Assembly: GCA_040218735.1 (NCBI GenBank)
Contig: JAVJQW010000011.1
Location: 32,001 to 96,000, forward strand
From: Deltaproteobacteria bacterium
GTDB lineage: Bacteria > Myxococcota > Kuafuiibacteriia > Kuafuiibacteriales > Kuafuiibacteriaceae
Reading direction: 5' to 3'
DNA length: 64,000 nt
This document shows, in pieces, positions 23,701 through 52,725 of the stretch. Positions within the stretch are counted from its first letter, which is position 1; each line of letters begins with the position of its first letter. The position numbers and the translations under genes are program-made. The notes under the pieces are model-generated. The model saw only the letters and a program-made list of their open reading frames with translations. It made no database searches and was not told where the DNA came from.

Positions 23701-23757
23701 TCGTGTTTCATCCTACCTCAGAGTAGACGCGCGCGCCGCCCTCGACATTCGGTTCGA

Positions 23758-36046: not shown

Positions 36047-37473
36047 GCGACGACGGCTGCGGACGCGCCGACCGACGACGTGAACACCGCGACGACCGCG
36101 TTCAGATCCACGATCTCGTGCGCACCGTTGCCGCTCTGGACGTCGGTCGTGGTCGCGGTCGTGACGTACTGAATCCCGCCGGTCGTCGTGCTCGTCGGCG
36201 CATAGTCGAGGACGCCGAGGGCGCCGTCCGAGATGCCGTTCATGTTCAGGCGGCGCACGACGACGTAGCCCGAACCATCGGTCGAGGCCGCGACGCCAAA
36301 CCCGAAGGGATGCGGCGCGCTATGACCGGCAGGGACGATCAGCGGCTCCGCAGTGCCCGCCTGCACGTCGATGCGCGCGGTGCACGTCGAGTTTCCGAAA
36401 GTCGACGCACACGAGTAGTACGCGGTGGACGGCGGGCTGAACGCGATATCACCGCCCAGCGACAGCCCCGAGATCATGTGCTCGAGCGCAAACGTCTGCC
36501 CGAGGTCGGTGCTCCGGTGGATCTCGAAGCGCAGCGGCGCGTCGATGAAGGCGATCAGGTCCCCGGTCGCCGGGTCGACGTGGATCGCGCCGCCCGCGGC
36601 GGTCGCGCTGGTGATCGACGCGAGCTCGAACGTCGTCTCTCCGAAGTCGGAGTTGCGCCAGACGCGGACCTCGGAACCCGCGCTGTCCTTCACCGCCAGG
36701 AAGACGTGGTTGCGCCACGACGCGATGTGCGGGCCGTAGTCGAGCAAGCCGCTCGCCACGGGGCCGGCGTCGACCACCCGGGGCGCCGACCACGTCGCGC
36801 CGCCGTCCGTCGACTTCGCGAACACCAGCGCGCCGCCCGTCGTGTTCGCCGCGGCGTACAGGACGTCGGGGGCGTGGGCGTGGATCGCGAAGCGCTCCAC
36901 GGTGGGGATCGCGATCGGCGTCGGGTCCGCGTAGCTCACGCCGAGGTCGGCGCTCCGCGCGACGTACGGCGCGCCGGCGCAGTCCATCGCGACGAAGATA
37001 CGGCCCGAGGGGTCGACCGTGACCTTGTCGATCTGCGCGGAGGGAATCGTACACCCCGGGCCGACGACCTGCTCGGGCACCGTAGCTGCGAGCGTCGGCG
37101 CCGGCGGTCCACACACACCCGAGAGGCAGACGTCTCCGCCCGCGCAAGCTGCGTTGCAAGCACCGCAGTGCCCATCGTCGGCGAACAGGTCGGCGCATAC
37201 GCCGTCGCAGTTCGTGAGCGGGTCCATACACATGCCGGCGTCACGCGGACCACCGTCGCGCGCGCCGCCGTCGCGCGGCGTCCCCGAGTCTGGCGTACCG
37301 CCGTCGGGTACGTCGACGCCGCCGTCGCGGAACCCGGCGTCCCGTACGACTTCGGTTCCGCTGTCGCGGGTCCCGCCGTCGCGCGGGTCGATCATCTCGT
37401 CGTCGTCATCACCGCCGCTGCAGCTCGCGAGCACCAGCGCAAACGTCAAACCCACTAGGCGTCGCACCATCAT
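36040..37473 (-). CDS. Lipoprotein with DGG-rich linker, Cys-rich module and BNR/Asp-box propeller
   Basis: Lipobox LASC; RDGG/RDSG repeats; CDGVCADL...HCGACNAAC; Asp boxes SADLG, STDGGATWS, STDLGQTF. Confidence 0.78.
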   Translation of the reverse strand: MMVRRLVGLTFALVLASCSGGDDDDEMIDPRDGGTRDSGTEVVRDAGFRDGGVDVPDGGTPDSGTPRDGGARDGGPRDAGMCMDPLTNCDGVCADLFADDGHCGACNAACAGGDVCLSGVCGPPAPTLAATVPEQVVGPGCTIPSAQIDKVTVDPSGRIFVAMDCAGAPYVARSADLGVSYADPTPIAIPTVERFAIHAHAPDVLYAAANTTGGALVFAKSTDGGATWSAPRVVDAGPVASGLLDYGPHIASWRNHVFLAVKDSAGSEVRVWRNSDFGETTFELASITSATAAGGAIHVDPATGDLIAFIDAPLRFEIHRSTDLGQTFALEHMISGLSLGGDIAFSPPSTAYYSCASTFGNSTCTARIDVQAGTAEPLIVPAGHSAPHPFGFGVAASTDGSGYVVVRRLNMNGISDGALGVLDYAPTSTTTGGIQYVTTATTTDVQSGNGAHEIVDLNAVVAVFTSSVGASAAVVAY

Positions 37474-37837
37474 GAAGCGTCGAGGATACACAGATCTGGT
37501 TTTCATGGGCTCCCCTTCCGCAAGCCGCGTGCCGATTGCGGCGCGTCGCGAGTCGCCATCGTGTCACGACGGATCGCCACGTCACCGTGCCATGGTTCGA
37601 GACCCCACCGCGCGACCATCGCAGCCTGAGATTCACCCCGAGACGGATCGCGTCGGGTCGCGCGGCACGGGGCCGACATGAATTCGCACTACGCATCCCT
37701 AGCGTAAACGTCGAGGCTCCGGCTCGCGTCACCCCCCTCGCGCCTGACACACGTCGACGCACGACCGGCTGTGACACGACGAGGGCCGTGCAACCTAACC
37801 GCCTTGGCACGACCGCTGCTATCGTCCCCCGTCGACC

Positions 37838-38794
37838 ATGCAGATCGTCGAGCTCCTCCTCGCTTACGCCGGACCCACGATCGTCGGCCTCGTCTTCGTC
37901 GTGACCGGCTTCCTCAAGCTCGCCGAGCCGATGCCGTTCGGGATGCACCTGCAGAAGCTCGAGCTCGTGCCGCCGAAGTACTTCGCGCGCGTCCTGACGT
38001 TCGCGATCGTCCAGGAGCTCGTGCTCGGCGTCGCGCTCCTCATCGGTTGCGCACCGATGCTCGTCATCCCCCTCGCCATCCTCACCATCGCGACCTTCAC
38101 GATCATCACCCTGCGCGCCGGCGCCGCCGGTCGCATCACCGACTGCGGCTGTTACCAAGGGCTGATCGAGCTGACCCCGAAGCAGAGCGCGCTCGTCAAC
38201 CTCGGCTACATGCTCGCCCTCGCCGCGGCCCTCCCCTTCCGCCTGCACCTCGGCCACTGGGTCACCGGCCTGATCGTCGCCGCCGCCGCCATCGCAGCAA
38301 CGCTCCTCGCGCGCGAGTCGCTGAAGCGCAGCGCACAGATGCGCGACCCCCTCATCGATCTCAACGGCGTCAAGGCCGGCAAACGCTTCGATCCTCGCTG
38401 GACCCCCGGCTGCCCCGTCGACCTCGGCGAAGGCGAACGCCTCGTCGTCTTCCTCGGCCTCGGCTGCTCCGCCTGCAAGCCATGGCTCCCCGTCCTGCGC
38501 GCGCTGAACGCGTCGAACCAGGGGATGCCGGTCATCGGCGTGCTCGCCGGCGACGCTTCGGCGGTCATCGCGTTCGTCGCCGAATACCAAGTGGACCTCC
38601 CGCTCGTCGTCATCCCGCACGGACGATTCAACCGCCTCGTCCGCGGCACGCCGATCGCGGCGCACCTCGTCGATGGACGCATCGAACACCGCTACGTCGG
38701 GGTCCTCCCTCGCGACGTCGCGCTGCGCGCGCGCAATCGTCCAAAGCCGAGCGTCTCAGTGGAATCCACTGAAGCGATCGGGGTCGCCGGATGA
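37838..38794 (+). CDS. MauE/DoxX-like membrane protein fused to a thioredoxin-like domain
   Basis: About 5 TM segments, GFLKL, DCGCYQG (MauE CGC motif), followed by GCSACKPW (CxxC). Confidence 0.8.
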   Translation: MQIVELLLAYAGPTIVGLVFVVTGFLKLAEPMPFGMHLQKLELVPPKYFARVLTFAIVQELVLGVALLIGCAPMLVIPLAILTIATFTIITLRAGAAGRITDCGCYQGLIELTPKQSALVNLGYMLALAAALPFRLHLGHWVTGLIVAAAAIAATLLARESLKRSAQMRDPLIDLNGVKAGKRFDPRWTPGCPVDLGEGERLVVFLGLGCSACKPWLPVLRALNASNQGMPVIGVLAGDASAVIAFVAEYQVDLPLVVIPHGRFNRLVRGTPIAAHLVDGRIEHRYVGVLPRDVALRARNRPKPSVSVESTEAIGVAG

Positions 38795-40323
38795 GGAACC
38801 GCTCCTTCGTCATCACGCTGGCGCTCCTGGCGCCGGCGAGCGCGAGCGCCGAGGGGACACTCCGCCTCGACGACGCGGTGCGCTCCGCGCTCACGGAGCA
38901 CCCCGATCTCCTCGCCGCGCAGCAGCGGGTCGAGGCGGCGCGGGGGCAGCTCTCCTCGGTGCGCGGCACCTTCGACGAATACCTGGACGCCAGTGTGGAC
39001 TACCAACGAACCGAGGAAGCGATCACGCAGGAGCAGCGTCCCTTCGTCGGCGCGGACAGCCTCACGTCCGACGTCTTCACCGCCCGCCTCGGGCTCTCGA
39101 AGACCTTCCGCTGGGGGATGCGCGTCAACCCGTCCGTCGCCGTAACGCGAAGCGAGCGCGACGTCGGTGCCAACGCCCCCGAGACCGACGCTCTCAACCG
39201 TGCGCAAGCTCGATTGCAGGTCACGCAACCCATCTTGCGCAACGTCGGCGCCTCGTCCGCCGTGCTCCAAGAGCGCACGTCCGAGATCGCGTTCGAGGCC
39301 GCCGAACGCGACCTCGAAGGCACCGCCCAACGGCTCACGCGCGACGTCGTGAATGCGTATTGGACCTACGCCGCATCCGTCCGCCGCCTGGCGCTCCTCG
39401 AGATCTCCGAAGCGCTCGCCAAGAAGACCGCCGAGGACACCCGCGCGCTGATCGCCGCCGACGAACGCCCCGCCGCGGACGCCCTCCAGCTCGAAGCCAC
39501 CGAAGCCGACCGGCGACGGCAACGCCTCCAGGCCGAGTCCTCGGTGTTCGCGGATCGCCGCCGCCTCGGCCTCGCGATGGGGCTCGACGACGCCCGCGCG
39601 ATGGCGCTCCCGCCCCCCGCGCGCTCGCTGCCGACCGCGCCCCTGCTGGCGGCGATCGCGCCGACGGAGCCCGAGCTCGCCGCCGCGGTCGAACGACGCC
39701 CGGACGTCATCGCGGCGCGGCTCCGACTCGCCGCCAACGGCCTCTCCGTCGACGCGGCCGACTGGAACACCCTCCCGGAGCTCGACGCGAGCTTCGGCGT
39801 CGGTTACAGCGGCCGCCTCGACCGCGACGCGCCGTCCGGGCTCTTCGGCGCGCTCACCGCGAACGTGGGTCCGTCCGTCGGCGGGGGCCTCACGCTGCGC
39901 CTCCCGGTGCGCAACGCCCAGCAACGCGGCGCCCTCCTCAACCAGCTCGCAGCGCGCCGGCAAGCCGAGTTGCAGCTCTTCGATCTCGAACGCAACGTCC
40001 GCGCGAACCTCGCGATCGCACACAACCAACTCCTGCGCGCGGCCGAAGCGGTGACCGCCGCGCAGCGCGCGCTCGAGCTCTTCGAGGGGGCGCTCGACGC
40101 CGAGACCGAAAAACTCGCGGCGCAGCTCGGGACCGTGCTCGACGTGGTGCTCTCGCAGGAGCGCCTGCTCAACGCGCAGATCTCTTCGGTCGACGCCCGC
40201 GCGCAGAACGCACGCGCGCACGTCGATCTCGAGTACCAACGCGGCGTCCTCCCCAACGGCGCCGAAGACCAAGACGCCCTCGCGCGGCTCCTCGCCGCGT
40301 TCGCCGAGGAGGCCACCCCATGA
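38791..40323 (+). CDS. TolC-family outer-membrane channel
   Basis: Signal peptide; LDDAVRSAL..HP, TQPILR, VVNAYW, RRPDV, LPELD, GTVLDV; ATGA coupling. Confidence 0.9.
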   Translation: MRNRSFVITLALLAPASASAEGTLRLDDAVRSALTEHPDLLAAQQRVEAARGQLSSVRGTFDEYLDASVDYQRTEEAITQEQRPFVGADSLTSDVFTARLGLSKTFRWGMRVNPSVAVTRSERDVGANAPETDALNRAQARLQVTQPILRNVGASSAVLQERTSEIAFEAAERDLEGTAQRLTRDVVNAYWTYAASVRRLALLEISEALAKKTAEDTRALIAADERPAADALQLEATEADRRRQRLQAESSVFADRRRLGLAMGLDDARAMALPPPARSLPTAPLLAAIAPTEPELAAAVERRPDVIAARLRLAANGLSVDAADWNTLPELDASFGVGYSGRLDRDAPSGLFGALTANVGPSVGGGLTLRLPVRNAQQRGALLNQLAARRQAELQLFDLERNVRANLAIAHNQLLRAAEAVTAAQRALELFEGALDAETEKLAAQLGTVLDVVLSQERLLNAQISSVDARAQNARAHVDLEYQRGVLPNGAEDQDALARLLAAFAEEATP

Positions 40324-41585
40324 GCTCACCGTTCCGTGAAGCCGCGCTCGAACGCCTGTCGTCGCCGGAGCAGCTCGACAGCCTGATGCAGGTCACCACC
40401 GCCAAGGGTTGGATCGCGCTCCTGACCTCCGGCGTCCTGGTCGCCGGCTTGACGGTGTGGAGCGTCGTCGGGCGCCTCCCGACCAACATCACCGGCTCGG
40501 GGGTGCTCCTCTACCGCGGCGGCGTGACCGAAGTGACCGCGCTCGGCTCGGGGCAGGTCACGGCGCTGCACGTCGCCGAGAACGACGTCGTGAAGGTGGG
40601 TCAGACGATCGCCGAGGTCGCGCAGCCGGATCTCGTCGACCAGATCACCGACGCCGAGGCTGCCGTCGAGCAGGCCCGCGCGGACCTCGAGACGCTGCAG
40701 CGCTTCGGCACCGAGGACCAGCGGCTGCAGGCCGTCAGCCTCCGCGCGAACGAGCGCGACAAAGCCGCCGCCTTGACCTCCGCGCGCGACAAACTCGCCT
40801 ACCTCGAAGAGCGCCACGCTGCGCAGCTCAAGCTCCACGACCGGGGCCTCATCACCGGCTCCACGTTGCAGCAGACGAAACAATCGATCGACGGCGCCCA
40901 GGCCGAGATCGCGCAGCTCACCCAGAGCGTCCGCGAGCTCCGCCTGTCGACGCTGCGCAACGAGAAGCAGTCCGAGTCGGAGCTGAGGAACGCCGAGGTG
41001 CGCCTCGCGGAGGCCGAGCGAAGGGTCGAGACGCTGAAGGAGCGCCTCGCGACCAGCTCGAAGGTCGCCAGCCCCTACGCGGGCCGCGTCGTCGAGGTCC
41101 GCGCGCGGCGCGGCGCGCAGGTCAACACCGGGGGCCCGGTCATCGCGCTGGAGCTCACGAGCCCCGACGACGTCGAAGAACTGGAAGCCGTCGTGTACCT
41201 CCCCCTCGCGGAGGGCAAGCGCGTGCAACCTGGCATGCGCGTCCGAGTCTCGCCTGCGACGGTGAAGGAGGAAGAGTTCGGGATGATCCACGGCGAGGTC
41301 CGCGCCGTGGACGGGTTCGTCTCCAGCCGTCAGGGCATGGCGCGCCTTCTCGAGAACGAGGACCTCGTCTCCAGCCTGATGCAGAGCGCGGGGGGAACGG
41401 CGCTCGGCGTGCGCGTGACCCTCGACCGTGACGAAGCCGCGAAGAGCGGCTTTTCGTGGACCTCGGGCGAAGGCCCCCCGCTACAGGTCGAGAGCGGCAC
41501 GCCCTGCTCCGCCACGATCACCCTCGAGACCGAGCGCCCGATCGCCCAGCTACTGCCGTCCGTCGCGAGGTGGTTGGGGCCGTGA
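40320..41585 (+). CDS. NHLM bacteriocin system secretion protein (HlyD family)
   Basis: FREAALERLSSPEQLD N-terminus characteristic of this family; TM, lipoyl-like halves, coiled coil, SPATVKEEEFG; ATGA coupling. Confidence 0.92.
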   Translation: MSSPFREAALERLSSPEQLDSLMQVTTAKGWIALLTSGVLVAGLTVWSVVGRLPTNITGSGVLLYRGGVTEVTALGSGQVTALHVAENDVVKVGQTIAEVAQPDLVDQITDAEAAVEQARADLETLQRFGTEDQRLQAVSLRANERDKAAALTSARDKLAYLEERHAAQLKLHDRGLITGSTLQQTKQSIDGAQAEIAQLTQSVRELRLSTLRNEKQSESELRNAEVRLAEAERRVETLKERLATSSKVASPYAGRVVEVRARRGAQVNTGGPVIALELTSPDDVEELEAVVYLPLAEGKRVQPGMRVRVSPATVKEEEFGMIHGEVRAVDGFVSSRQGMARLLENEDLVSSLMQSAGGTALGVRVTLDRDEAAKSGFSWTSGEGPPLQVESGTPCSATITLETERPIAQLLPSVARWLGP

Positions 41586-43711
41586 AACGCAAGAAGGTCG
41601 AGACCGTCCTCCAGATGGAGGCCGTAGAGTGCGGCGCCGCGTCACTCGCGATGATCCTCGGCTACTACGGCGCGCACGTCCCGCTCGAAGAGCTCCGCTA
41701 CGAGTGCGGCGTGTCGCGCGACGGCACCAAGGCCGGCAACATCCTCCGCGCCGCGCGCACCTACGGCCTCACCGCGAAGGGCTTCAAGAAGGAGCCGTCG
41801 CAGCTCGCCGAGATGCCGCTCCCCGCGGTGCTGCACTGGAACTTTCAGCACTTCCTCGTGCTCGAAGGCATCGACGACGAAAAGGCGTGGCTCAACGATC
41901 CCGCGCTCGGTCAACGGACCGTCACCCTCGAACAGCTCGACGAGGCCTTCACGGGCGTCGTCCTCACCTTCGAACCCAACGACGCGTTCAAAAAGCGCGG
42001 CGCGCCGATGCGAGTGTGGCCGAAGCTCCTGGAACGCATCCAGGGTTCGAAGTCCGCGCTCGTCTTCGCCGTCGTCGCCGGGCTCCTCCTCGCGGTGCCG
42101 GGGATCGTGATCCCCCTCCTCGCGCGGATCTTCGTCGACGAGATCCTCGTGGGCGGAAAGACGAGCTGGCTCCTCCCGCTCCTCGCCTTCGCCGCGCTCC
42201 TCCTCGTCCTGCAGTCCGGGCTCGGCCGACTGCGCGCGAAGAACCTCCTCGACTTCCGCACCAAGCTCTCCGTCCTGGGCTCGGCGCGCTTCATCTGGCA
42301 CACGCTGCGGATCGAGCCGCGGTTCTTCGAAGCGCGCTTGCCGGGCGACGTCGCGATGCGCGCCGGCCTCGAGTCTTCGCTCGCGGGGACCCTCGCCGGG
42401 CAGCTCGCGAGCACCTTCATCGATCTGCTGCTCGTCGTCTTCTACCTGATCGTGATGCTGTCGTTCGACGTCCCGCTCACGCTCGCCGCCGTGACCGCCG
42501 CCGCGATCAACATCGTCGCGCTCCGGATGATCCAGTCCCACCGCGCGACCCTGAGCAACCGCGCGTCGCGCGCCGAGTCGAACCTCAACGGCGTGCAGTC
42601 GGCGGGGCTCATGCAGATCGAGACGCTCAAGTCGACGGGATCCGAGAGCCAGTTCTTCGAACGCTGGGCCGGGAACTACGCCCACGTCGTGAACACCAAG
42701 CAGGAGTCGACCGACAGCAACCTGCGCCTCGGCCTCGTGCCCGCGCTCCTCGGTGGGATCTCCACCGCGGTCATCCTCTGCTGGGGCGCGACCCGCGTGC
42801 TCGACGGCGCGATGACGATGGGGACGCTCGTCGCGTTCCAAGCGCTCACCGCCTCGTTCCTCGGCCCGGTCCAGCGCGTCCTCGGGCTGTGGTCGACGGT
42901 CCAGATGCTCCCCGGCAACCTGGTCCGCCTCGACGACGTCCTGAAACAACGCGTCGACGACCCGTTCGGCGAAGGCAACGATCGGACGCCGCTCGTCGGG
43001 CGCGTCGAGCTGGAGGGCGTGACGTTTGGCTACAGCCCGCGCGAGCCGCCGCTGCTCGACGACTTCTCGCTCACCGTCGAACCGGGGCAACGCGTCGCGC
43101 TCGTCGGGAGCTCCGGGAGCGGCAAGAGCACCATCGCGAAGCTCATCGCCGGCGTGTATCCGCCGTGGGCCGGCACGGTCCTCTTCGACGGGCGACCGCC
43201 GAACACGATCGACCGCCGCGCGTTCCTGGACGCGTTCAGCGTGGTGAACCAGGAGATCATCCTCTTCGAAGGCACTGTCCGCGAGAACCTCACGTTCTGG
43301 GACGACTCGATCCCGCAGGAGGACGTCGTGCGCGCGGCGAAGGACGCGTGCATCCACGAACACATCGTCGGCCTCCCGAACGGCTACGACACAAAGCTCG
43401 AAGAGGCCGGCCGGAACCTGAGCGGCGGGCAGCGGCAGCGCCTCGAGCTCGCGCGCGCGCTCGTCAAGAACCCGGCGCTCCTCGTGCTCGACGAAGCGAC
43501 GAGCGCGCTCGACTCGACGGTCGAGCAGCAGATCGATCGCAACCTGAGGCGCCGTGGGTGCACCTGCCTGATCGTCGCGCACCGCCTGAGCACCGTGCGC
43601 GACGCGGATCAGATCGTCGTCCTCGAACGCGGCAAGGTCGTGGAGCGCGGGACCCACGACGACCTGTACGCGTCCGACGGCACCTACAAACGACTGGTGG
43701 CGTCGGCATGA
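41582..43711 (+). CDS. NHLM-type ABC transporter with C39 peptidase domain
   Basis: LQMEAVECGAASL (Cys), CGVSRDG, HWNFQHF (His), NDPA; GSSGSGKS, LSGGQRQR, LDEATSALD. Confidence 0.95.
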   Translation: MKRKKVETVLQMEAVECGAASLAMILGYYGAHVPLEELRYECGVSRDGTKAGNILRAARTYGLTAKGFKKEPSQLAEMPLPAVLHWNFQHFLVLEGIDDEKAWLNDPALGQRTVTLEQLDEAFTGVVLTFEPNDAFKKRGAPMRVWPKLLERIQGSKSALVFAVVAGLLLAVPGIVIPLLARIFVDEILVGGKTSWLLPLLAFAALLLVLQSGLGRLRAKNLLDFRTKLSVLGSARFIWHTLRIEPRFFEARLPGDVAMRAGLESSLAGTLAGQLASTFIDLLLVVFYLIVMLSFDVPLTLAAVTAAAINIVALRMIQSHRATLSNRASRAESNLNGVQSAGLMQIETLKSTGSESQFFERWAGNYAHVVNTKQESTDSNLRLGLVPALLGGISTAVILCWGATRVLDGAMTMGTLVAFQALTASFLGPVQRVLGLWSTVQMLPGNLVRLDDVLKQRVDDPFGEGNDRTPLVGRVELEGVTFGYSPREPPLLDDFSLTVEPGQRVALVGSSGSGKSTIAKLIAGVYPPWAGTVLFDGRPPNTIDRRAFLDAFSVVNQEIILFEGTVRENLTFWDDSIPQEDVVRAAKDACIHEHIVGLPNGYDTKLEEAGRNLSGGQRQRLELARALVKNPALLVLDEATSALDSTVEQQIDRNLRRRGCTCLIVAHRLSTVRDADQIVVLERGKVVERGTHDDLYASDGTYKRLVASA

Positions 43712-46269
43712 CCAGCGCGACGTACGACAGCCGAACGACCCGCTCCATCGAGGGCAACGCCCCGCTGTGGCTCGTCGGCGACGGCGCGTGGCGGGTCGTC
43801 GGCGGCGAGGTCGATCTGTTCGTGGTGCAGCGGCGAGACGGCCGCGCCGTCGGGCGGCGCCGCTACCTCGGACAGATCGGCGCGAACGCCCTCCTCCTGG
43901 AGCTCGAGTGCGACGCCGAGCATCAGCTCCTCGCCGTCGGGGTGCTCGGCACGACGGTCGAGCGTGTCGAAGACCCGTCCCCGAGCGACCCCGCGCTCGG
44001 CCCCTGGCGCAAGATCTTCGGCGGCGAGGATCCCCGCGTCGCCGCCCAGACCTTCCTGGCCGACGAGGCCCCCCGCGAATTGAACGCCCGTGCGGCGATC
44101 CGCGATCGGGTGGAGGCCGGCGTCGAGCGCAACCGCGACCTCTTCGACGCCGCCCTGCGAGGCCTCGGCGATCTCCGCCTCCGCGGCGCCGCGAAGTGGT
44201 CGCCGCCCGACGAACCGTTGGCCTTCGCGATCGCCCACGTCGCGCGCGCCGAGGGCATGACGCCGCCCGCGAGCGCGTTCGAGGACCTCGGCGAAGGTGA
44301 CGCCAAGACGCGCCTCGAACGCTTCGGCCGCCGCGCTCGCGCGCGGAGCCGGCGCGTGTTGCTGCGCGGGGACTGGTTCAGAACCGACGCCGGCTCCCTC
44401 GTCGCGTTCGAGGACCGCGGCGTCGACAAGCCTTACCCCGTCGCGTTGGTCCGCACCGCGGCGGGTTACGTGCTGCACGCCGCACAGGAGGCGCCCGTCG
44501 CCGTCGACCGCGAGGTCTCGGACCGGCTGACCGGCGAGGCGTTCCAGCTCTACCCGGGCTTCGACAAGGACCGCATCACACCCGTCGATCTCGTTCGCTT
44601 CGCGATGCGCGGCCGACGCACCGACGCGATCGTGATGGCCGCGATCGGGATCGCGGGTGCGGTCGTGGGGTCCGCCGTCCCGCTCGCGACGAAGGAGATC
44701 TTCGGCACCGTCATTCCGAACGCCGCGCACTCGATGCTGTGGTTGGTGTTCGCGGCGCTCATCGGGCTCACCGTCGCGCAGGCGGTGTTCCAGCTGTCGA
44801 TGGGGCTCGCGCAGCTGCGGCTCGAGTCGCGCACCACCGCCGCGTCGCAGGCGGCGGTCCTGGATCGTGTGCTCAGCCTGCCGATGGGATTCTTCCGGCG
44901 GTTCGGCACGGGGGATCTGTCGCAGCGCGCGATGGGCATCGAACAGATCCGCTCGATGCTCTCGGGGACGGTCTTTGCGTCGTTGATGTCGTTTGTCTTC
45001 TCGCTGTCGAGCTTCGCGCTCTTGTTCTACTTCAGCCTCCAGCTCGCGCTCGCGGGGCTCGTGCTCGTCCTGATCGCCGGGGGCGTCGCGGTGTTCAGCG
45101 CGTGGATCGACGTGCGACTGATGCGGCGCATGGAGGAAGCGCGCGGCGCGACTTCGAACTACCTCCTCGAAAACCTCGCGGGGATCGCCAAGATCAAATC
45201 GGCGGGCGCCGAGGCCCACGTGTTCGCGGAGTGGTCGAAGCGCTTCGGGCGACAGTGGTCACTCACGTATCGCTCGACGGACATCCAGAACGACGTGCAG
45301 ACCTTCACCACCGCGTTCCCGCTGTTCTGTTCGATGGTGCTGTTCTTCATCGTCGGCAACTCGGGCGGCGACATCGGTACCGCCGACTACGTCGCGTTCT
45401 CCGCCGCGTTCACCGCGTTCAACGGGGCCGCGCTCGGCCTGATCAACGCCGGGCTGATGGCCCTCAGGATCGTCCCGCTCTACGAGCGCGCGCGGCCGAT
45501 CCTCGAGACAACGCCCGAGGTCCCGACCGAACGCCTCGCCGACGTGGACCTGAACGGGAAGATCGAGGTCAGCCACGTGAGCTTCGGCTACGACCCGGAG
45601 GCGCCGGTGCTCGAGGACGTCAGCTTCGAGGTCCCCGCCGGCCAGATGGTCGCGCTGGTCGGTCCCTCCGGCTCCGGGAAGTCGACGCTGGTGCGGCTCC
45701 TCCTCGGGTTCGAGACACCGACGTCCGGCGCGGTGTACTTCGACGACCAAGACCTGTCCGAGATGAACGCCGAGGCCGTGCGCCGGAACATGGGCGTCGT
45801 GACCCAGACCGGCGAGGTCCTCGGCGGAACGATCCTCGAGAACATCCGCGGCGGGACCGACGCGACGATGGAGCAGGTCTGGACCGCCGCGGAGCGCGCG
45901 GCGTTCGCCGACGAGATCCGCGCGATGCCGATGGGGATGCACACCGTCCTCCAGCCGCGCGGCGGGACACTCTCCGGCGGCCAGCGGCAGCGCCTGCGGA
46001 TCTCGCGGGCGCTGGTCGAAGAGCCGAAGATCCTCGTCCTCGACGAAGCGACGAGCGCGCTCGACAACCGGACGCAGGCGGTCGTCACGGACAGCCTGCA
46101 GGCGCTCGGCGTGACGCGGCTGGTGATCGCGCACCGGCTCAGCACGATCGAGCGCGCGGACCTGATCGTCTACCTCGAGGACGGGCGCGTGGTGGAGCGC
46201 GGCACGTTCGAGGAGCTCATGGCGCTCGACGGCGCCTTCGCGAAGCTGGCGCGCCGGCAGCAGGCGTGA
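43708..46269 (+). CDS. Second NHLM-type ABC transporter (no peptidase, cNMP-like N-terminus)
   Basis: GEVDLFVV..GRRRYL N-terminus; TMD; GPSGSGKS, LSGGQRQR, DEATSALDN; ATGA coupling. Confidence 0.93.
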   Translation: MTSATYDSRTTRSIEGNAPLWLVGDGAWRVVGGEVDLFVVQRRDGRAVGRRRYLGQIGANALLLELECDAEHQLLAVGVLGTTVERVEDPSPSDPALGPWRKIFGGEDPRVAAQTFLADEAPRELNARAAIRDRVEAGVERNRDLFDAALRGLGDLRLRGAAKWSPPDEPLAFAIAHVARAEGMTPPASAFEDLGEGDAKTRLERFGRRARARSRRVLLRGDWFRTDAGSLVAFEDRGVDKPYPVALVRTAAGYVLHAAQEAPVAVDREVSDRLTGEAFQLYPGFDKDRITPVDLVRFAMRGRRTDAIVMAAIGIAGAVVGSAVPLATKEIFGTVIPNAAHSMLWLVFAALIGLTVAQAVFQLSMGLAQLRLESRTTAASQAAVLDRVLSLPMGFFRRFGTGDLSQRAMGIEQIRSMLSGTVFASLMSFVFSLSSFALLFYFSLQLALAGLVLVLIAGGVAVFSAWIDVRLMRRMEEARGATSNYLLENLAGIAKIKSAGAEAHVFAEWSKRFGRQWSLTYRSTDIQNDVQTFTTAFPLFCSMVLFFIVGNSGGDIGTADYVAFSAAFTAFNGAALGLINAGLMALRIVPLYERARPILETTPEVPTERLADVDLNGKIEVSHVSFGYDPEAPVLEDVSFEVPAGQMVALVGPSGSGKSTLVRLLLGFETPTSGAVYFDDQDLSEMNAEAVRRNMGVVTQTGEVLGGTILENIRGGTDATMEQVWTAAERAAFADEIRAMPMGMHTVLQPRGGTLSGGQRQRLRISRALVEEPKILVLDEATSALDNRTQAVVTDSLQALGVTRLVIAHRLSTIERADLIVYLEDGRVVERGTFEELMALDGAFAKLARRQQA

Positions 46270-46279
46270 GGAGGAACCG

Positions 46280-46777
46280 ATGCGACAGGCTTTGTACATC
46301 CTAGGGCAACTCACGGACGACGACGTGGAGTGGATGATCCAAAACGGTCGTCGCCACGCCGCGCGCACCGGCGACGTCCTGATCCGCGAGGGTGAGCCGG
46401 TGCGGTCGCTGTTCGTGCTGCTCGACGGCCTCGTCGCGATCGAGCGTGGCGGCAAGCGGATCAACACGTCGCAACCGGGTGAGTTCTTGGGAGAGCTGTC
46501 CTTCGTGGACTCGCGGCCGCCGAGCGCGACGGTCAAGGCGGCCCGCGACTCATCGCTCCTCGAATTGCCGCGTGACGTGCTGGTGCGCCACCTCGGTGAA
46601 GACCTCGGGTTCGCGAGCCGCTTCTACCGCGCGGTGGCGGTGTTCCTCGCCGACCGCGTGCGCGCGGAGATCGGCGGAGGTCACGATCCGGACGAGCTCG
46701 ATCCGGACGTGCTCGACGAGGTGAGTCGGGCGGGCGAGCGGTTCACGCGGATCCTTCAGAGGTTTCAGCGAGCGTGA
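46280..46777 (+). CDS. Cyclic-nucleotide-binding domain protein, bacteriocin-transport associated
   Basis: GAGGAGG RBS; LTDDDVEWM, LIREG, GEFLGELSFVDSRPPSATV, FASRFYRA. Confidence 0.9.
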   Translation: MRQALYILGQLTDDDVEWMIQNGRRHAARTGDVLIREGEPVRSLFVLLDGLVAIERGGKRINTSQPGEFLGELSFVDSRPPSATVKAARDSSLLELPRDVLVRHLGEDLGFASRFYRAVAVFLADRVRAEIGGGHDPDELDPDVLDEVSRAGERFTRILQRFQRA

Positions 46778-46904
46778 GCGGTGACGTGTCACAAGCGCGG
46801 GCGGTGACACAGAGGACACGATCGAGGCGCGGCCGCGGTGGCCCGCTTGGTGCATTTCGAAAACGTAGGCGCGACACGATAGGCGCGCGGAGGAATGAAG
46901 AGAG

Positions 46905-47585
46905 ATGAAGAGCATCACCATCAACGGAAAGACGTACTACCCGGGCGACGAGGTCGAAGTGGAGATCGATGGGCAAAAGCATCGACTCCCGTTCCCCAAG
47001 GACCCGGGCGTGTCCGAATCGGGCGAGCTCAGCGACGATGCGCTGGACGCCGTCACCGGGGGCGCCGGAAGCTACCCGGTGTGTCCCGGATCCGAGGGTA
47101 CCGGCGGCACGCCCATCTGTGACGTGGCTTCGCTGTACATCGGCGCCCTCTGCTTCGAGACGGGGTCGACGCTCCAATGTTTCTGCTCGAGGAGCAACGG
47201 CTACGCCATCGACTCGTACACGAACTGCCAGGGGCTCGGTCCGGACACCACGGTGTCCGACGCTCGCGTGAAGCAGGACGTCCAGCCCCTCGAAGGCGCG
47301 CTCGACACCCTCCTCGCGCTCCGCGGCGTCACGTTCGCCTACGACGCCGAAAAGGCGCCCGGCACGCGGCCCGGTGAGCACGTCGGGTTCGTCGCGCAGG
47401 AGGTCGAAGAGGTCCTCCCCACCTGGGTGCACGAGGCCGGAGGCATCAAGCGCCTGAAGGCCGAGGGGCTCTCCTTCGAAGCGCTCGCCGTCGAGGCGCT
47501 CCGGGAGCTGAAGAAGCAGAACGAACGCCTCGCCGAAGACAACGCCGAGCTGCGCAAGCGGCTGGATCGAATCGAGTCCGCCTGA
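46905..47585 (+). CDS. Double-glycine-leader precursor: 6-Cys core fused to a peptidase S74-like intramolecular chaperone domain
   Basis: ELSDDALDAVTGG leader end; Cys-rich aa 54-117; SDARVK..., LRGVTFAY, GFVAQEVEEVLP and a terminal coiled coil. Confidence 0.85.
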   Translation: MKSITINGKTYYPGDEVEVEIDGQKHRLPFPKDPGVSESGELSDDALDAVTGGAGSYPVCPGSEGTGGTPICDVASLYIGALCFETGSTLQCFCSRSNGYAIDSYTNCQGLGPDTTVSDARVKQDVQPLEGALDTLLALRGVTFAYDAEKAPGTRPGEHVGFVAQEVEEVLPTWVHEAGGIKRLKAEGLSFEALAVEALRELKKQNERLAEDNAELRKRLDRIESA

Positions 47586-47619
47586 TCCGCTTCTGCCCCG
47601 ACCTGCTACGCTGCGCGCG

Positions 47620-49686
47620 ATGTCGGACGTCGACCTCGCGCGCGTGCTCAACGAACGGTTCGGGCTCTCATCGTTCCGCCCCGGGCAGGAAGAAGCCATC
47701 CGCGCGCTCCTCGCCGACGGGCGCCTCCTCTGCATCCAGCCCACTGGCCACGGCAAGTCCCTGCTCTACCAGCTCCCGGCGACGCTCCTGCCGGGCATCA
47801 CGCTCGTCATCTCGCCGCTGCTCGCGCTCGTGCGCGATCAGGTGCAGCAGCTCGGCGAGCGCTTCTCGATCCACGCCGTCGCGATCAACTCCGACCAGGA
47901 GGACGACGAAAACGAGGCCGCGATGCGCGACGCCGCGAGCGGCGCTGCGAAGATCCTGTTCGTGTCCCCGGAGCGCCTCGACAACGTGGAGGCGTGGCAG
48001 TTCCTCCTGAGCCTCGCGGTCGACCTCGTCGTCGTCGACGAAGCGCACTGCATCTCGACGTGGGGGCACGACTTCCGCCCGTCGTACCGGCGCATCGTCG
48101 ACGCGGTGCAGAGCCTCTCCGGGCAGCGCGAAGGTGTGCGCGTCCTCGGCCTCACTGCGACGGCGTCGGCGCGCACCGAAGCGGACATCGCGCGGCAGCT
48201 CGCGCCGGATGCGGATCACCCGCTCACCGTGATGCGGGCGTCGATGGACCGCGCGAACCTCTCCCTCGCGACCCGGAGCGTGTCCGGCCCGGCGGAGAAG
48301 CTCGGCTGGCTCGACGCGTTCCTCGCGGACGCGGAGGGCACCGGCATCCTCTACTGCGCGACGCGCGATCAGACGGAGGTCGTCGCGGCGTTCCTCTCCG
48401 CGCGCGGGCACGACGTCGTCGCCTACCACGCGGGGCTCGCGCCCGAGGACAAGCGTCGGCTGCAGCAAGCGTTCACGCGCGGGGACCACAAGGCGATCGC
48501 CGCGACGAATGCGTTGGGGATGGGGATCGACAAGGCGGACCTGCGCTTCATCGTTCACGTCGACGTCCCGGGCTCGATCACCGCGTACTACCAGGAGGTC
48601 GGCCGCGCGGGACGCGACGGGGAGCCGGCCCGTGGCGTGCTGCTCTTCGACCCCGCCGACCGACGCATCCAGGCGCACTTCATCCGCTCCGCGCAGCCGA
48701 CCGCCGAGGACTTCGACCAAGTGCTCTCGGTGCTGCGTCCGGGGGGCGACGATGAGTGGCCGAACCTCACTCAGGTGAAGATGCGCTCCGGCCTCCACCC
48801 GACGCGCGTCACTGTCGTGCTCGCCGAGCTGCGCGAGCAGGGCCGCGTCGAGAAGGTCCTCGACCGCCGTCGCCAGGTCTACCGAACGATCGAGGGCGAC
48901 CACCCGCCGCTGGATCTGACGCGTTATATTCGACAGAACGAGGTCCGGACGAACGAGCTCGAGGCGATGATGCGCTACGCCGCGGCCGAGGTGCCGTGCG
49001 CGATGCAGGCGCTCCGCGTCGCGCTCGGTGACGACGGCGCCGAACGTTGCGGGCGCTGCGATCGGTGCGCACCCGATGCGTGGTCACTCCCGGCGCCGGG
49101 CGTTGGCGCCGAGGTCGCGGGGCGCTGGCTCTCGGATCGCGTCGTCCCGATCCCCGCGATGCGGACGAACAAGGTGTCCGAGGGCGTCGCGCTGATGACG
49201 AGCGAGGAGCGCAGCCCGCCGTTCCTGCACTTCATGAAGGCGCGCACGAACGCCACGTCGCTCGACGCGGTCGTGCTCGAGAACCTCGATGCACGCGCGG
49301 CCGAGCTCGCCGAGCTACATCGGTTCTCCGCGGTGGTCGCGGTGCCCTCTCGGACGTGGGCGCAGCGGACGGCCACCGGCGAGCGGCTCGCCGCGGCCGT
49401 CGGCGCGACGTTCGTCGAGGCCCTGCGTTGGCGCGAGCCGCCCGAGGCTCGCCAGGGCGAGCTGCTCAACAACGACCAGCGACGCGACAACGTGAAGGGC
49501 CGCCTCGACGCGGCGCTCGACGACGACGGCGGCGCGGTGCTCCTCGTCGACGACTACACCGGGAGCGGGTCGACCCTCGCGGAGGCCGCGCGTGCGCTCC
49601 GCAAGGATGCGGGTTGGTCCGGGGCGATCGTCCCGTTTGTCATCGCGAAGGTGCGCTGGCGGCTCGGCGCCCGCGGGATCGTCTGA
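47620..49686 (+). CDS. recQ: RecQ-family helicase with C-terminal PRTase-like domain
   Basis: FRPGQ, PTGHGKS, DEAHCISTWGHDFRP, TATA, QEVGRAGRDG, CGRCDRC; C-terminal VLLVDDYTGSGSTL. Confidence 0.9.
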   Translation: MSDVDLARVLNERFGLSSFRPGQEEAIRALLADGRLLCIQPTGHGKSLLYQLPATLLPGITLVISPLLALVRDQVQQLGERFSIHAVAINSDQEDDENEAAMRDAASGAAKILFVSPERLDNVEAWQFLLSLAVDLVVVDEAHCISTWGHDFRPSYRRIVDAVQSLSGQREGVRVLGLTATASARTEADIARQLAPDADHPLTVMRASMDRANLSLATRSVSGPAEKLGWLDAFLADAEGTGILYCATRDQTEVVAAFLSARGHDVVAYHAGLAPEDKRRLQQAFTRGDHKAIAATNALGMGIDKADLRFIVHVDVPGSITAYYQEVGRAGRDGEPARGVLLFDPADRRIQAHFIRSAQPTAEDFDQVLSVLRPGGDDEWPNLTQVKMRSGLHPTRVTVVLAELREQGRVEKVLDRRRQVYRTIEGDHPPLDLTRYIRQNEVRTNELEAMMRYAAAEVPCAMQALRVALGDDGAERCGRCDRCAPDAWSLPAPGVGAEVAGRWLSDRVVPIPAMRTNKVSEGVALMTSEERSPPFLHFMKARTNATSLDAVVLENLDARAAELAELHRFSAVVAVPSRTWAQRTATGERLAAAVGATFVEALRWREPPEARQGELLNNDQRRDNVKGRLDAALDDDGGAVLLVDDYTGSGSTLAEAARALRKDAGWSGAIVPFVIAKVRWRLGARGIV

Positions 49687-49718: not shown

Positions 49719-51041
49719 ATGTCACGCGACGACAAGACCGTGAAGAAGAAGTCGCTGGCGCGCCCGAAGCCGCGCCGCCGCGTCGTGCGCATCGTCTTCG
49801 CGCCCGATCCCGCGGCCCGCGGCCGGGTGGTCGAGCTCGACGGGCGCGAGAAGACCTTCGGCCGCGCCGCCGAAGGGGATGGCCTCGTCGAGGACGACAC
49901 GATGTCGCGGCAACACTTCGCGCTCAGGCCCGAGGCCGGCGCGCAGTACCGCATCGAGGACCTCGGGACCTCGAACGGCACCTTCGTCGACGGGCGTCAG
50001 CTCGGCGGCCCTGCGCCCGTCGAACCGCAGCAGGTGGTCGCCGCGGGGGAGACGCTGTTCACGATCGACGTCGAGCCGAAGAAGGACACCCTCCCCGCCA
50101 CGGACGTCGACGCGGATGCCGTGACCGAGGTCGTCGGTGTGTCCCTCGCGACCGAGCGCTTGCGCCGATCGCTCGCGACCGTCGCGCGCGCGCCCGGCGC
50201 CGTGCTGCTCCTCGGCGCGACGGGGGCCGGCAAGGAGGTTGCCGCGAACGCTATCCACCGACTGAGCGAGCGCCCCGGCGCCCTGGTCGCGGTGAACTGC
50301 GCCGCGATCCCAAAGGACATGGCCGAAGCCGAGCTGTTCGGCCACGTACGCGGCGCGTACACCGGCGCCGAGACGGACCGCGCCGGCTACATCGAACGCG
50401 CCGACGGCGGCACGCTGTTCCTCGACGAAATCGGCGACCTCCCGGAGGCGCTGCAAGCCAAGTTGCTCCGCGTCCTCGAGACGGGTGAAGTCGCGCGCCT
50501 CGGTGCGGAGGGGATGAAGAAGGTCGACGTCCGCTTCATCGGCGCGACGCACAAGGACCTCGAAGGCGGCGCGTTCCGCAAGGACCTCTTCGCGCGCCTG
50601 TCGGACTGGGTGCTCCGCCTCCCGCCGCTGAAGGACCGCAAGGCCGACGTCCTCCCGCTGTTCGATCACTTCCTCGGCGACGCCGAGTCCTACGGACCGG
50701 AGGTCGCCGAGGCGCTCCTCCTCCACGACTGGCCGATGAACGTGCGCGAGCTGCGCAAACTCGCGCAGCGGCTCCGCACCCTCGCGGACTCCGGCGTCGT
50801 CGCGCTCGACGATCTCCCATCGACGCTCACGGAGCGCCTCGCGCATCGGTTCGAAGAGGAGGTCGAGGACCCGGACGACCCCAACATCGCCGCGCCCCCG
50901 CGCGAGGAGCTCGAGGCCGCGCTGCGCGCCTGCAAGGGCAACGTGAAGGACACCGCCACCGCGAACGGCTGGCACCGGACACAGCTCTACCGCTGGCTCA
51001 AGCGACGCGCGATCGATCCGAAAGCCTTCCGGGATGGCTGA
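49719..51041 (+). CDS. FHA-domain sigma54-dependent transcriptional activator
   Basis: FGR..MSRQH..GTSNGT (FHA); GATGAGKE, GAYTGA, LFLDEIG, WPMNVREL; C-terminal HTH. Confidence 0.93.
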   Translation: MSRDDKTVKKKSLARPKPRRRVVRIVFAPDPAARGRVVELDGREKTFGRAAEGDGLVEDDTMSRQHFALRPEAGAQYRIEDLGTSNGTFVDGRQLGGPAPVEPQQVVAAGETLFTIDVEPKKDTLPATDVDADAVTEVVGVSLATERLRRSLATVARAPGAVLLLGATGAGKEVAANAIHRLSERPGALVAVNCAAIPKDMAEAELFGHVRGAYTGAETDRAGYIERADGGTLFLDEIGDLPEALQAKLLRVLETGEVARLGAEGMKKVDVRFIGATHKDLEGGAFRKDLFARLSDWVLRLPPLKDRKADVLPLFDHFLGDAESYGPEVAEALLLHDWPMNVRELRKLAQRLRTLADSGVVALDDLPSTLTERLAHRFEEEVEDPDDPNIAAPPREELEAALRACKGNVKDTATANGWHRTQLYRWLKRRAIDPKAFRDG

Positions 51042-52725
51042 CCTCGGCGAGCTCCGCCGACGCCTCGGGATCCCGCGGGACGGCGAAGCGCGCTACGCCC
51101 TGGGCGACGAGCTCGGCCGCGGCGCCTTCGGACGCGTCGTCTCCGCCGAAGACCGCGACCTCGATCGCGCCGTCGCGATCAAGGCCCTCTCCGCCGACCC
51201 CGGCGCGTCCCCGGACGACGCCGAAGCGTTCCTCGCGGAGGCGATGATCACCGGGCGCCTCGAACACCCCAACATCGTCCCCGCGTACGACGTCGGCGTG
51301 CACGACGAGCTCGGCCTCTACTACACGATGAAGCGCCACGGGGGTCGCTCGCTGCGCGGTGCGATCGACGACCTGGAGCTCGGACCGGCGCTCGACGTGT
51401 TCGTCCAGATCTGTCGCGCCGTCGCGCACGCGCATCGCCACGGCGTGGTGCACGCGGACCTCAAACCGGAGAACGTGCTGCTCGGCGAGCGCGGCGAGGT
51501 GCAGGTCGGCGACTGGGGCGTCGCGTTCCGTGTCGACGACGACGGCCGCCCCGTCGGTGGCCCCCGCCCCGGCGAGGGATCGCTTCGGTACATGGCGCCC
51601 GAACAGATCACGGAGGCGTTCGAAGCGCTCGACCACCGCATCGACGTCTGGTCGCTCGGCGTCATGCTCTACGAGCTGCTCACGAAGACGGTCCCGTTCG
51701 ACGGCGCCGACGAAGAGGACGTCCTGGAGTCGATCCTCACCGACCGCGTCGAGCCGCCCTCGCGAATCGATCCCGCGATCCCCGAGGCGATCGACAACAT
51801 CTGCCTCGGCGCGCTGACGAAGTCGCGCTCCGACCGCTACTCGACGGTCGATGTGATGCTCGACGACCTCGAAGCCGAGCTCGCGGGGCGCCGCGAAGAA
51901 CAGCGCAGGCGACAGATCGCCGAGCGTGCCGTCCGCGTGGTGGACGCGTTGCTCGAAGACGCCGACCTCGACGCCTACGCACTCGCCGCCGATCACCTCG
52001 TAGCGGGCCTGTCGCTGGTCCCCGACCACGCCGAGCTCCTCGCGCGCGCCGGGACGATCTACTGGCGCGTCTTCGAGGACATCTACCCCGGCGGCACGAC
52101 CGACGACCCGCAGCGCGCGCTCGCGTTGCTCGCGAGGCTCACCGAGCACGCGCTCGGCGGCGTCGTGCGCGCGAAGCCGGACCAGCTCAGCACCGGCGAC
52201 CTCGAAGACCCGTGGCTGTCGCTCGTACGGCGCCTCACCGCGGGGGAGCGCGTCCAGGCTTCGGAGGCGCCCCCGGCGCTGCTCCGCCTCGTGCGGAGGA
52301 TCGAGTTGCTCGACGCGGCGCCGATCTTCGCGTCCCTCCCCTCGCACCGCCTCCTGACGATCGCCGAGGCCTGCGACGACGTGGCACTCGCCGCGAACGA
52401 GACGCTCTTCGAGACCGGCGACGAGAGCCGCACGCTCTACATCGTCATCGACGGCACCCTGCGCGCCGAGCGCGCCGGACAGGTCCTCTCCACGATGGGC
52501 GCAGGCGAAGTGTTCGGCGAGATCGCGCTGTTCGGTGGGCATCGCCGAACCGCCACCGTCGTCGCCGAGACGGACGCGTCGTGCCTCGCGCTCGACGGCG
52601 CGAAGTTCTCCGAACTCGTCGAGAACAACGGCGACATCGCGCTCGCAGCGCTGAAGGTGTTGAGCGCCCGCCTCGAAGCCGCGACGCGGCGCGAAGCCGC
52701 GCGGCGTCACGCGCCCGGTTCGTGA
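51034..52725 (+). CDS. Ser/Thr kinase with C-terminal cNMP-binding domain
   Basis: LGRGAFG, VAIK, HADLKPEN, DWG, YMAPE; GEVFGEIALF..RTATV. Confidence 0.9.
   Translation: MADLGELRRRLGIPRDGEARYALGDELGRGAFGRVVSAEDRDLDRAVAIKALSADPGASPDDAEAFLAEAMITGRLEHPNIVPAYDVGVHDELGLYYTMKRHGGRSLRGAIDDLELGPALDVFVQICRAVAHAHRHGVVHADLKPENVLLGERGEVQVGDWGVAFRVDDDGRPVGGPRPGEGSLRYMAPEQITEAFEALDHRIDVWSLGVMLYELLTKTVPFDGADEEDVLESILTDRVEPPSRIDPAIPEAIDNICLGALTKSRSDRYSTVDVMLDDLEAELAGRREEQRRRQIAERAVRVVDALLEDADLDAYALAADHLVAGLSLVPDHAELLARAGTIYWRVFEDIYPGGTTDDPQRALALLARLTEHALGGVVRAKPDQLSTGDLEDPWLSLVRRLTAGERVQASEAPPALLRLVRRIELLDAAPIFASLPSHRLLTIAEACDDVALAANETLFETGDESRTLYIVIDGTLRAERAGQVLSTMGAGEVFGEIALFGGHRRTATVVAETDASCLALDGAKFSELVENNGDIALAALKVLSARLEAATRREAARRHAPGS

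Follow-up and report, generated by a model that had tools for sequence, protein, structure and literature searches.

A candidate double-glycine-leader precursor with a Peptidase_S74 follower, encoded with an NHLM-type export operon

We analysed a 64,000-nucleotide (nt) stretch of contig JAVJQW010000011.1 (hereafter the window) from an 11.6 Mb genome of the phylum Myxococcota (G000), and in particular the gene for a protein, P0001, that lies beside the genes of an ATP-binding cassette (ABC) export system. Judged from its sequence, P0001 combines two known maturation devices, the cleavage of a double-glycine (GG) leader by peptidase-containing ABC exporters and the trimerisation-dependent self-cleavage of a Peptidase_S74 (S74) domain, and this pairing is unreported in the literature that we searched. 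We consider it probable, at roughly 60%, that the leader is cut and the protein exported, and that the S74 domain then trimerises and removes itself, leaving a disulfide-bonded core of 54-69 amino acids (aa).

Architecture of the precursor and its relatives

The initial annotation had read the gene as a bacteriocin-like leader and Cys-containing core fused to an S74 chaperone, and its reading frame, leader end, core boundaries and Cys positions are all correct by translation. The leader of P0001 ends in LSDDALDAVTGG, and a longer stretch up to aa 53 reads ...GELSDDALDAVTGG. The consensus for double-glycine leaders has hydrophobic residues at positions -4, -7 and -12, and P0001 agrees with it, having V50 (-4), L47 (-7) and L42 (-12) ahead of G52-G53. 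This GG leader stands in place of a Sec signal peptide, which P0001 lacks. The six Cys of the core are at protein positions 60, 72, 83, 92, 94 and 108, that is, core positions 7, 19, 30, 39, 41 and 55. The core is followed by V117, SDARVK at aa 118-123, LRGVTFAY, GFVAQEVEEVLP and a long C-terminal helix.

The region after the core, the follower, carries a clear S74 signature. The hidden Markov model (HMM) PF13884 matches aa 118-175 with positions 1-57 of its 58 (E 6.8e-17; 62 bits, cut-off 22), and in a profile search against solved chains P0001 matches the S74 chains 6f45 (5e-9), 8jov and 7dc3. S118, D119, R121 and K123 are invariant in all five family sequences and show conservation of 90% or more across 62 S74 sequences. 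Together with the fold match to 7dc3 described below, these results uphold the earlier proposal of an S74 domain with an intact Ser-Lys dyad.

A word-indexed search of 5.8 billion clusters with P0001 gave 60 matches among 2,428 candidates, and whole-length matches were confined to P0002 (233 aa, 63% identity), from a genome of the same genus (G001), and P0003 (231 aa, 67%), from a Logan contig; the other 57 match in the S74 part alone and are fibre-like proteins. With aa 1-117 as the query, the same search returned the same three proteins (P0001-P0003) from 48 candidates, and phmmer, run against 1,835,955,588 cluster representatives, returned P0003, P0061 and P0062. We judged P0061, a 533-aa repeat protein, to be a spurious relative; six repeated stretches in it match only aa 36-70. 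P0062, from a Planctomycetota metagenome-assembled genome (MAG; G401), has 242 aa, with a 72-aa leader ending in ELTDEQLEAVSGG, a 54-aa core with six Cys, and the motif SDRRLK. We refer to the three closely related sequences as the close relatives, and to these plus P0062 as the full-length family (n = 4). It is known from four sources: G000, one genome of the same genus, one Logan contig and one Planctomycetota MAG. Full-length homologues at 63-67% identity and the same architecture in a distant homologue indicate that the precursor gene is real.

G000 carries one precursor copy. In G001, P0002 is encoded on contig C379, and a second copy is divided between two contig ends (the end of L023 and the start of L024, on contigs C1141 and C233), with the assembly break inside the variable core.

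The GG motif noted in the initial annotation is conserved in all four full-length members. In the form L-[ST]-D-[DE]-x-L-[DE]-A-V-[ST]-G-G it occurs in each of them and in none of the 57 other S74 matches, and a GG-leader pattern applied to the 62 proteins collected picks out four, exactly the family members. Among the three close relatives, leaders are 74-79% identical and followers 73-79% (35-40% and 52-54% to P0062), while cores are 23-28% identical (16-18% to P0062). The initial annotation had raised the prospect of variable cores, and the family presents them: at this low core identity the six Cys are kept in all four members, with a shared frame C-x10-C-x7-9-C-x13-15-C, in cores of 54-69 aa with isoelectric points (pI) of 4.05-5.25. 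We also considered a descent of the core from a phage fibre tip. The alignment that BLASTP gives with the long tail fibre of a Vibrio phage enters the core, but there is no shared Cys and no real similarity, and the idea was dropped.

In the genome contig collection the leader profile (A2) found only the G001 and Planctomycetota loci, and in the metagenome contig collection it found no relative. Over 401 genomes of the phylum of G401 the full leader occurs only in G401; in four other genomes of that phylum the profile matches weakly and in part, at the GG end (E 1e-4 to 1e-2). On contig C102 of genome G448 (L067, L070, L071) are three tandem open reading frames (ORFs) of 125-130 aa; the matches of their N-terminal parts to the leader profile are weak and fall at its GG end (E 4e-4 to 2e-3), and these ORFs are probably an unrelated array of GG-leader precursors.

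To place P0001 among other S74 proteins, we collected S74 matches from both phyla. In the window's phylum, 103 of the 401 genomes sampled have such matches; in that of G401 the number is 40 of 401, at E up to 1e-6. ORFs of at most 400 aa among the matches listed, family members excluded, form a short S74 set of 33 and 13 loci in the two phyla; larger S74 frames were left out, and the S74 sites in the 33 loci were located with an HMM built from A3. A GG-leader motif upstream of the S74 site was found in 0 of these 46 short ORFs.

Twelve of the 33 loci (L035, L042-L044, L046-L052, L055) encode a lipoprotein-type signal, a Gly-rich linker and 22-25 Cys, then SDRNIK and the S74 domain; their Cys-rich motif is CCGAGQLCCDPQGP...CPQGCAPLC. 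Since these 12 carry a Cys-rich region before SD..K, an S74 domain behind a predicted Cys-rich secreted domain is precedented in the window's phylum; the GG leader and the tiny size are not. At L032 and L034 a signal peptide leads directly into the S74 cleavage motif, with no cargo between.

G000 has one other S74 protein, P0063 (473 aa; L027:11048-12469, minus strand, contig C56), which combines S74 with a Sec signal and a collagen triple-helix repeat. A gene for another C39-peptidase ABC transporter (L027:6617-8860) follows about 2.2 kb downstream of its gene on the same strand, with two unassigned ORFs between them and JmjC/cupin-like genes beyond. The idea of a general adjacency of S74 and C39-transporter genes in the phylum was dropped, as we saw it only in G000 when coordinates were compared by eye with two transporter candidates scored per genome.

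The linked export operon and a model of maturation

The precursor gene reads as the last gene of a translationally coupled operon (Table 1). Four start/stop overlaps of 4 nt join the first five genes, including those at the starts of the TolC-like, HlyD (40320) and ABC2 (43708) genes, and the HlyD ATG at 40320 is preceded by GAGGAGG. ABC1 holds the motifs ECGAASLAMIL and QHFLVLEG, and ABC2 has no Peptidase_C39 match in Pfam. The initial annotation had placed an NHLM transporter next to the precursor, and this is confirmed by TIGR03794, TIGR03796 and TIGR03797, all above their cut-offs, and by the recurrence of the linkage in the same genus and in another phylum. When the GG-leader pattern was applied to 14 proteins of the window region and 10 of the Planctomycetota cluster, it matched the S74 protein only. 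The gene at the head of the operon, which the initial annotation had missed, encodes a MauE-thioredoxin fusion protein (P0065) with CGC at aa 103-105 and CxxC at aa 210-213, both invariant in the alignment, and its predicted function strengthens the disulfide part of the reading.

In G001, contig C379 keeps the gene order ABC2, protein binding cyclic nucleotide monophosphate (cNMP), precursor, and another contig (C911) carries both ABC1 and a MauE-thioredoxin gene whose product is 66% identical to P0065. The Planctomycetota contig has the order HlyD (308.7 bits), ABC1 (1018.1 bits), ABC2 (883.5 bits), precursor; the only MauE match of G401 lies about 6 kb from HlyD on the opposite strand, and this 320-aa protein has 47% identity to P0065 across 289 aa and likewise contains the CGC and the CxxC. 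Between the window and Planctomycetota cassettes, identity is 47% for MauE-thioredoxin, 46% for ABC1, 41% for the precursor, 39% for ABC2 and 26% for HlyD. In all three genomes with context the precursor gene (for G001, one of two copies) is next to the same transporter or on contigs that share synteny with it, and the MauE-thioredoxin fusion lies within the cluster in all three.

P0065 is the one above-cut-off MauE match in G000, and none of five other genomes of the phylum with an above-cut-off TIGR03796 match yielded a homologue. A word-based search of 5.8 billion clusters gave two close homologues, at 66%, one of them from Logan, as is P0003, and the other probably the copy on G001 contig C911; this search missed the Planctomycetota protein and is therefore not exhaustive. 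The MauE-thioredoxin profile (A5) found no relative in the metagenome contig collection. The linkage and the cassette identities across G000, G001 and G401 indicate that oxidoreductase, transporter and precursor travel together.

The same evidence bears on the suggestion that P0001 is not a transporter substrate at all, its gene being a fragment of a phage-type fibre gene that stands beside the transporter by chance and its GG being incidental. The S74 part does match 182 phage records, all below 60% identity, and one G001 copy has no transporter gene on its short contigs. However, profile scans found no phage genes flanking the precursor gene in the window, both the leader, GG included, and the order of genes following ABC2 are shared by two phyla, the core shows no alignment to a phage fibre tip, and none of the 46 other short S74 ORFs among the matches listed has such a leader. 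We regard a chance fragment as very improbable.

We modelled the precursor as a monomer and as a trimer. The AlphaFold2 (AF2) monomer has a mean predicted local distance difference test score (pLDDT) of 74.6, with values exceeding 90 across aa 121-226, which hold the S74 domain and helix. In the leader it has four strands in aa 4-29, at pLDDT 75-84, and a helix at aa 44-50 ahead of the GG. The best PDB match found by Foldseek is MyRF ICA 7dc3 (E 2.8e-5, probability 1.00), followed by 3gw6, 3gud and 4uw8. For aa 1-117 the ESM Atlas gave no usable feature match, and its structure rows have template modelling (TM) scores of at most 0.37. A model of three copies of aa 54-226 has an interface score (ipSAE) of 0.93, against 0.00 for the best control, a mark that 20 of 30 proteins whose structures are pairs of one chain attained, as did 1 of 23 whose structures are single chains. 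Contact agreement across the trimer runs is at least 59% and partner pLDDT at least 67, and the confident contacts are confined to aa 114-224. Since S74 trimers have already been solved, the pass may reflect likeness rather than binding.

These models could also describe a protein that is never released, in which the 173-aa protein stays intact or associated and the S74 domain and coiled coil serve as a permanent trimer stalk for a small Cys-rich head, so that the whole would be a tiny adhesin or fibre. Conservation is highest in the follower (73-79%), which bears all the confident trimer contacts, and bacterial S74 fibres exist (PMC10769870). On the other hand, an invariant Ser-Lys pair and SDxRxK would be expected only if cleavage matters, and no anchor domain remains once the leader is removed. 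We therefore find a permanent stalk improbable.

In the maturation that we propose instead, P0001 would be the only visible substrate of the adjacent NHLM-type type I, peptidase-containing ABC export system. The C39 domain of ABC1 would cut after G53 during export of the unfolded 173-aa remainder, and three S74 domains and coiled coils would associate outside the cytoplasm, gathering three cores. P0065 would handle the six Cys, which would pair as three disulfides within each chain or join one chain to another. The pair S118 and K123 would then cleave the V117-S118 bond, and the 109-aa chaperone would be discarded. The product would be an acidic, disulfide-bonded miniprotein of 64 aa (54-69 aa in relatives), possibly a trimer. 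The proposal leaves the order and the compartment of the two cuts free.

If the order were reversed, the S74 domain would trimerise and cleave itself in the cytoplasm, as a temporary solubility or safety module, and the transporter would handle a 117-aa GG precursor and export the 64-aa core alone. Phage tail-fibre S74 domains fold and cleave in the cytoplasm, a 64-aa cargo suits the usual size for C39 transporters, and the predicted fold of the N-terminal part of the leader suggests that the precursor resides for a while in the cytoplasm. Yet a cytoplasmic trimer would need to be unfolded for export and disulfides could not lock it, so that the chaperone step would achieve little, and the conserved MauE-thioredoxin gene points to folding that is coupled with thiol chemistry at the membrane. 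Processing before export seems unlikely to us, though less so than the two alternatives above.

Several observations weigh against export followed by self-removal. Curated GG-leader HMMs, which the initial annotation had proposed as a check, do not match that of P0001: aa 1-117 has no match to TIGR01847, TIGR03949, TIGR03793 or TIGR03798 at E up to 10, and the P0062 leader has sub-threshold matches only (E 0.012-0.075), all at the GG end. The usual cargo of C39 transporters is smaller than 173 aa. Class II bacteriocins are cationic, unlike the acidic core (pI 4.05-5.25), and no conserved neighbour in the window, G001 and Planctomycetota loci resembles an immunity gene. A TolC-coupled route would bypass the periplasm, which puts in question where oxidoreductase and substrate would meet, and a count of Lys and Arg by eye in P0065 would even allow a cytoplasmic thioredoxin domain. 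The second G001 copy is flanked by caspase-like (Peptidase_C14) and GH46-like genes, and its short contigs hold no transporter gene. In one metatranscriptome library four short contigs fall on the locus, one of them covering 46887-47037, and as this library may hold DNA the evidence of expression is weak. The comparative sample is also small, consisting of four full-length proteins, three of them closely related.

The core itself has AF2 pLDDT values of 41-51, a low model confidence, and no confident trimer contact in the model. Of the trimer put forward in the initial annotation, the model of aa 54-226 covers aa 114-224, where it passes its controls, perhaps by likeness to solved S74 trimers, but not the core, which no confident contact supports as a trimer. 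With low core confidence and no such contacts, a trimeric released core is unproven.

As for the class of the product, the label of bacteriocin or ribosomally synthesised, post-translationally modified peptide (RiPP) survives in its first half. Apart from the MauE-thioredoxin fusion, a candidate for disulfide formation, the window and Planctomycetota clusters share no modifying enzyme; since only this thiol-disulfide oxidoreductase-like protein was found, 'bacteriocin-like secreted protein' fits better than RiPP. The variability of the core and the analogy to fibre tips suggest that it may target other cells or surfaces, in the manner of a bacteriocin or a receptor-binding factor, which is the weakest of our inferences.

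A bolder picture, which we offer tentatively and at somewhat less than even odds, is that of a class of secreted miniprotein matured by two unrelated cuts, whose product would be free, trimeric and locked by disulfides, a 'fibre tip without a fibre'. A folded leader would be cut at its GG by the C39 peptidase; the exported, disposable S74 domain would assemble three cores outside the cytoplasm and then cleave itself off; and a dedicated MauE-thioredoxin protein would set the disulfides. The product would bind other cells as a toxin, receptor blocker or signal, and the whole cassette would have moved between two phyla.

Surroundings, regulation and occurrence

Table 1. Features of the precursor gene, its operon and their surroundings in the window.
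Feature	Position	Strand	Evidence or remark
Large Kelch-repeat protein	22633-28260		
Large Kelch-repeat protein	32168-36046		
Sigma-54-like motif TGGC-N8-TGCT, candidate	37805-37820	+	pattern search; 18 nt upstream of first operon gene
P0065, MauE-type membrane domain and thioredoxin-like domain, 318 aa	37838-38794	+	Pfam MauE 57 bits (cut-off 27); weak AhpC-TSA, aa 198-262
TolC-like outer-membrane factor	38791-40323	+	TIGR01844 E 4.9e-26, 91.7 bits, below cut-off 225
NHLM-type HlyD membrane-fusion protein	40320-41585	+	TIGR03794 310.7 bits (cut-off 156.2)
ABC1: C39 peptidase, permease and ATPase	41582-43711 (start 41582 or 41570)	+	TIGR03796 989.8 bits (cut-off 853.3); Pfam Peptidase_C39 128 bits
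ABC2: permease and ATPase	43708-46269	+	TIGR03797 761.9 bits (cut-off 709.4)
Small cNMP-binding protein, bacteriocin-transport-associated type	46280-46777	+	Pfam cNMP_binding 63 bits; TIGR03896 122.4 bits, below cut-off 161
Sigma-54-like motif TGGCCCGCTTGGTGCA, candidate promoter of precursor gene	46839-46854	+	50 nt upstream of ATG
Ribosome-binding site GGAGGA	46889-46894	+	10 nt upstream of ATG
Precursor gene (P0001, 226 aa)	46905-47585	+	single open frame 1 by translation
Leader, aa 1-53: beta-rich conserved N-terminal part (ITINGKTYYPGDE...), then helix with terminal GG cleavage motif	46905-47063	+	
Core, aa 54-117	47064-47255	+	six Cys; acidic, pI 4.05; differs among relatives
Peptidase_S74 domain, aa 118-175	47256-47429	+	includes S118 and K123
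C-terminal helix, aa 190-225	47472-47579	+	AF2 and trimer models; in modelled trimer interface
RecQ-family helicase	47620-49686		TIGR00614 323 bits; C-terminal region weakly like phosphoribosyltransferase/GntX
FHA-domain sigma-54 activator	about 49719-51041		
Ser/Thr kinase fused to cNMP-binding domain	51034-52725		

Downstream of the precursor gene lie genes for a RecQ-like helicase, an FHA-domain sigma-54 activator and a Ser/Thr kinase with a cNMP-binding domain (Table 1). The helicase gene is not kept downstream of the precursor homologues. A kinase gene also follows the Planctomycetota precursor gene, and the two kinase domains are 35% identical. Genes for large Kelch-repeat proteins flank the cassette in both phyla (two in the window, and L062:9868-12141 on the minus strand), with 25-31% identity across the repeats and lipoprotein or Sec-type N-termini. 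We considered these giants as additional transporter substrates and dropped the idea, given such N-termini and no GG motif. The Planctomycetota locus also encodes a 1,024-aa fusion of an extracytoplasmic function (ECF) sigma factor with CarboxypepD_reg.

Two candidate sigma-54-like motifs precede operon genes. The spacing of TGGC-N8-TGCW fits the sigma-54 consensus, and the window holds eight matches against 1.8 expected, a number reached by 1 of 100 shuffles; the eight sites are spread over 19791-47208. The motif at the head of the operon, if a promoter, would give a very short 5' untranslated region. TGGC-N8-TGCA is retained in the otherwise diverged intergenic region of G001, and the Planctomycetota locus has no strict match to the motif. 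A sigma-70 promoter scan returned 0 sites, a terminator scan gave results at chance level, and Rfam at its gathering threshold had no match in 37000-48500.

Near-identical DNA is present in contigs from three studies, of aquaculture, sponge and biofloc metagenomes. Across up to 1,421 nt, these contigs have 10-20 differences from the window, with no excess of changes in the core.

Comparison with known systems and significance

P0001 shares HMM, sequence and fold with the S74 chaperones of phage endosialidases and tail fibres (3gw6, 3gud, 4uw8, 6f45) and of MyRF ICA (7dc3), and like them it has SDxRxK, a Ser and a Lys five residues apart, and a following helix that forms the trimer interface, here in a predicted model. 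Known S74 domains follow a long trimeric fibre, a beta-helix or a transcription-factor domain, whereas that of P0001 follows a 64-aa Cys-rich core behind a GG leader; known S74 proteins are cytoplasmic, Sec-exported or anchored in the endoplasmic reticulum, whereas P0001 has a double-glycine leader. The 12 lipoprotein-type S74 proteins of the phylum resemble P0001 in having a Cys-rich region right before SD..K, but differ in their lipoprotein or Sec signal and in an unrelated Cys pattern (CCGAGQLCC...); no adjacency to an ABC1 match was seen for them by eye, with two transporter candidates scored per genome.

With class II bacteriocins and microcin V, P0001 shares a GG leader, a dedicated C39 transporter with membrane-fusion and outer-membrane partners, and, by prediction for P0001, an unmodified Cys-containing product. 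It departs from them in its length of 226 aa, its predicted second, autoproteolytic cut, its acidic core and the lack of a recognised immunity gene. The oxidoreductase has a parallel in MauE and MauD, which are needed for the disulfide-rich small subunit of methylamine dehydrogenase. Like that pair, P0065 has a MauE membrane domain and a thioredoxin-like CxxC and is encoded beside a small Cys-rich protein of secreted type; unlike it, P0065 fuses both functions and belongs to a bacteriocin-type export operon without methylamine genes.

Haft et al. 2010 (PMC2887384) tied the transporter families TIGR03794, TIGR03796 and TIGR03797 to NHLP and Nif11 precursors. As described there, these systems share with P0001 the same transporter families, a long, partly structured GG leader, a variable core and copies away from the transporter. 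In contrast, the P0001 leader is unrelated (no NCBIfam match to the NHLP and Nif11 leader families TIGR03793 and TIGR03798), no cyclodehydratase or lanthionine synthetase is encoded nearby, and a 109-aa follower that is predicted to cleave itself is present. The MAT fibres of Bdellovibrio, as described in PMC10769870, have about 1,000 aa, a Sec signal and a conserved N-terminal domain, and their self-cleavage has been shown, with S782A blocking it. According to the same paper, they are a chromosomal, non-phage use of S74 for secreted trimeric proteins with diverse ends, and to that extent are like P0001. P0001, however, has neither fibre nor Sec signal, is 226 aa long, and would be exported by a C39 transporter. 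A full-text literature search gave no paper joining S74 to double-glycine leaders, C39 transporters, bacteriocins or RiPPs, where mentions of 'S74' within RiPP papers were left unexamined.

The family amounts to four full-length proteins among 1.84 billion cluster representatives, and since it is so rare its ecological weight is probably small and its interest mechanistic. If our reading is true, P0001 would be the first GG-leader precursor with a self-removing follower, and would show an S74 chaperone at work on a cargo of 54-69 aa, probably after export. MauE-thioredoxin fusions would gain a concrete candidate substrate. The system would also represent another route to small disulfide-rich oligomers, and may offer a possible design for secreted self-processing miniproteins.

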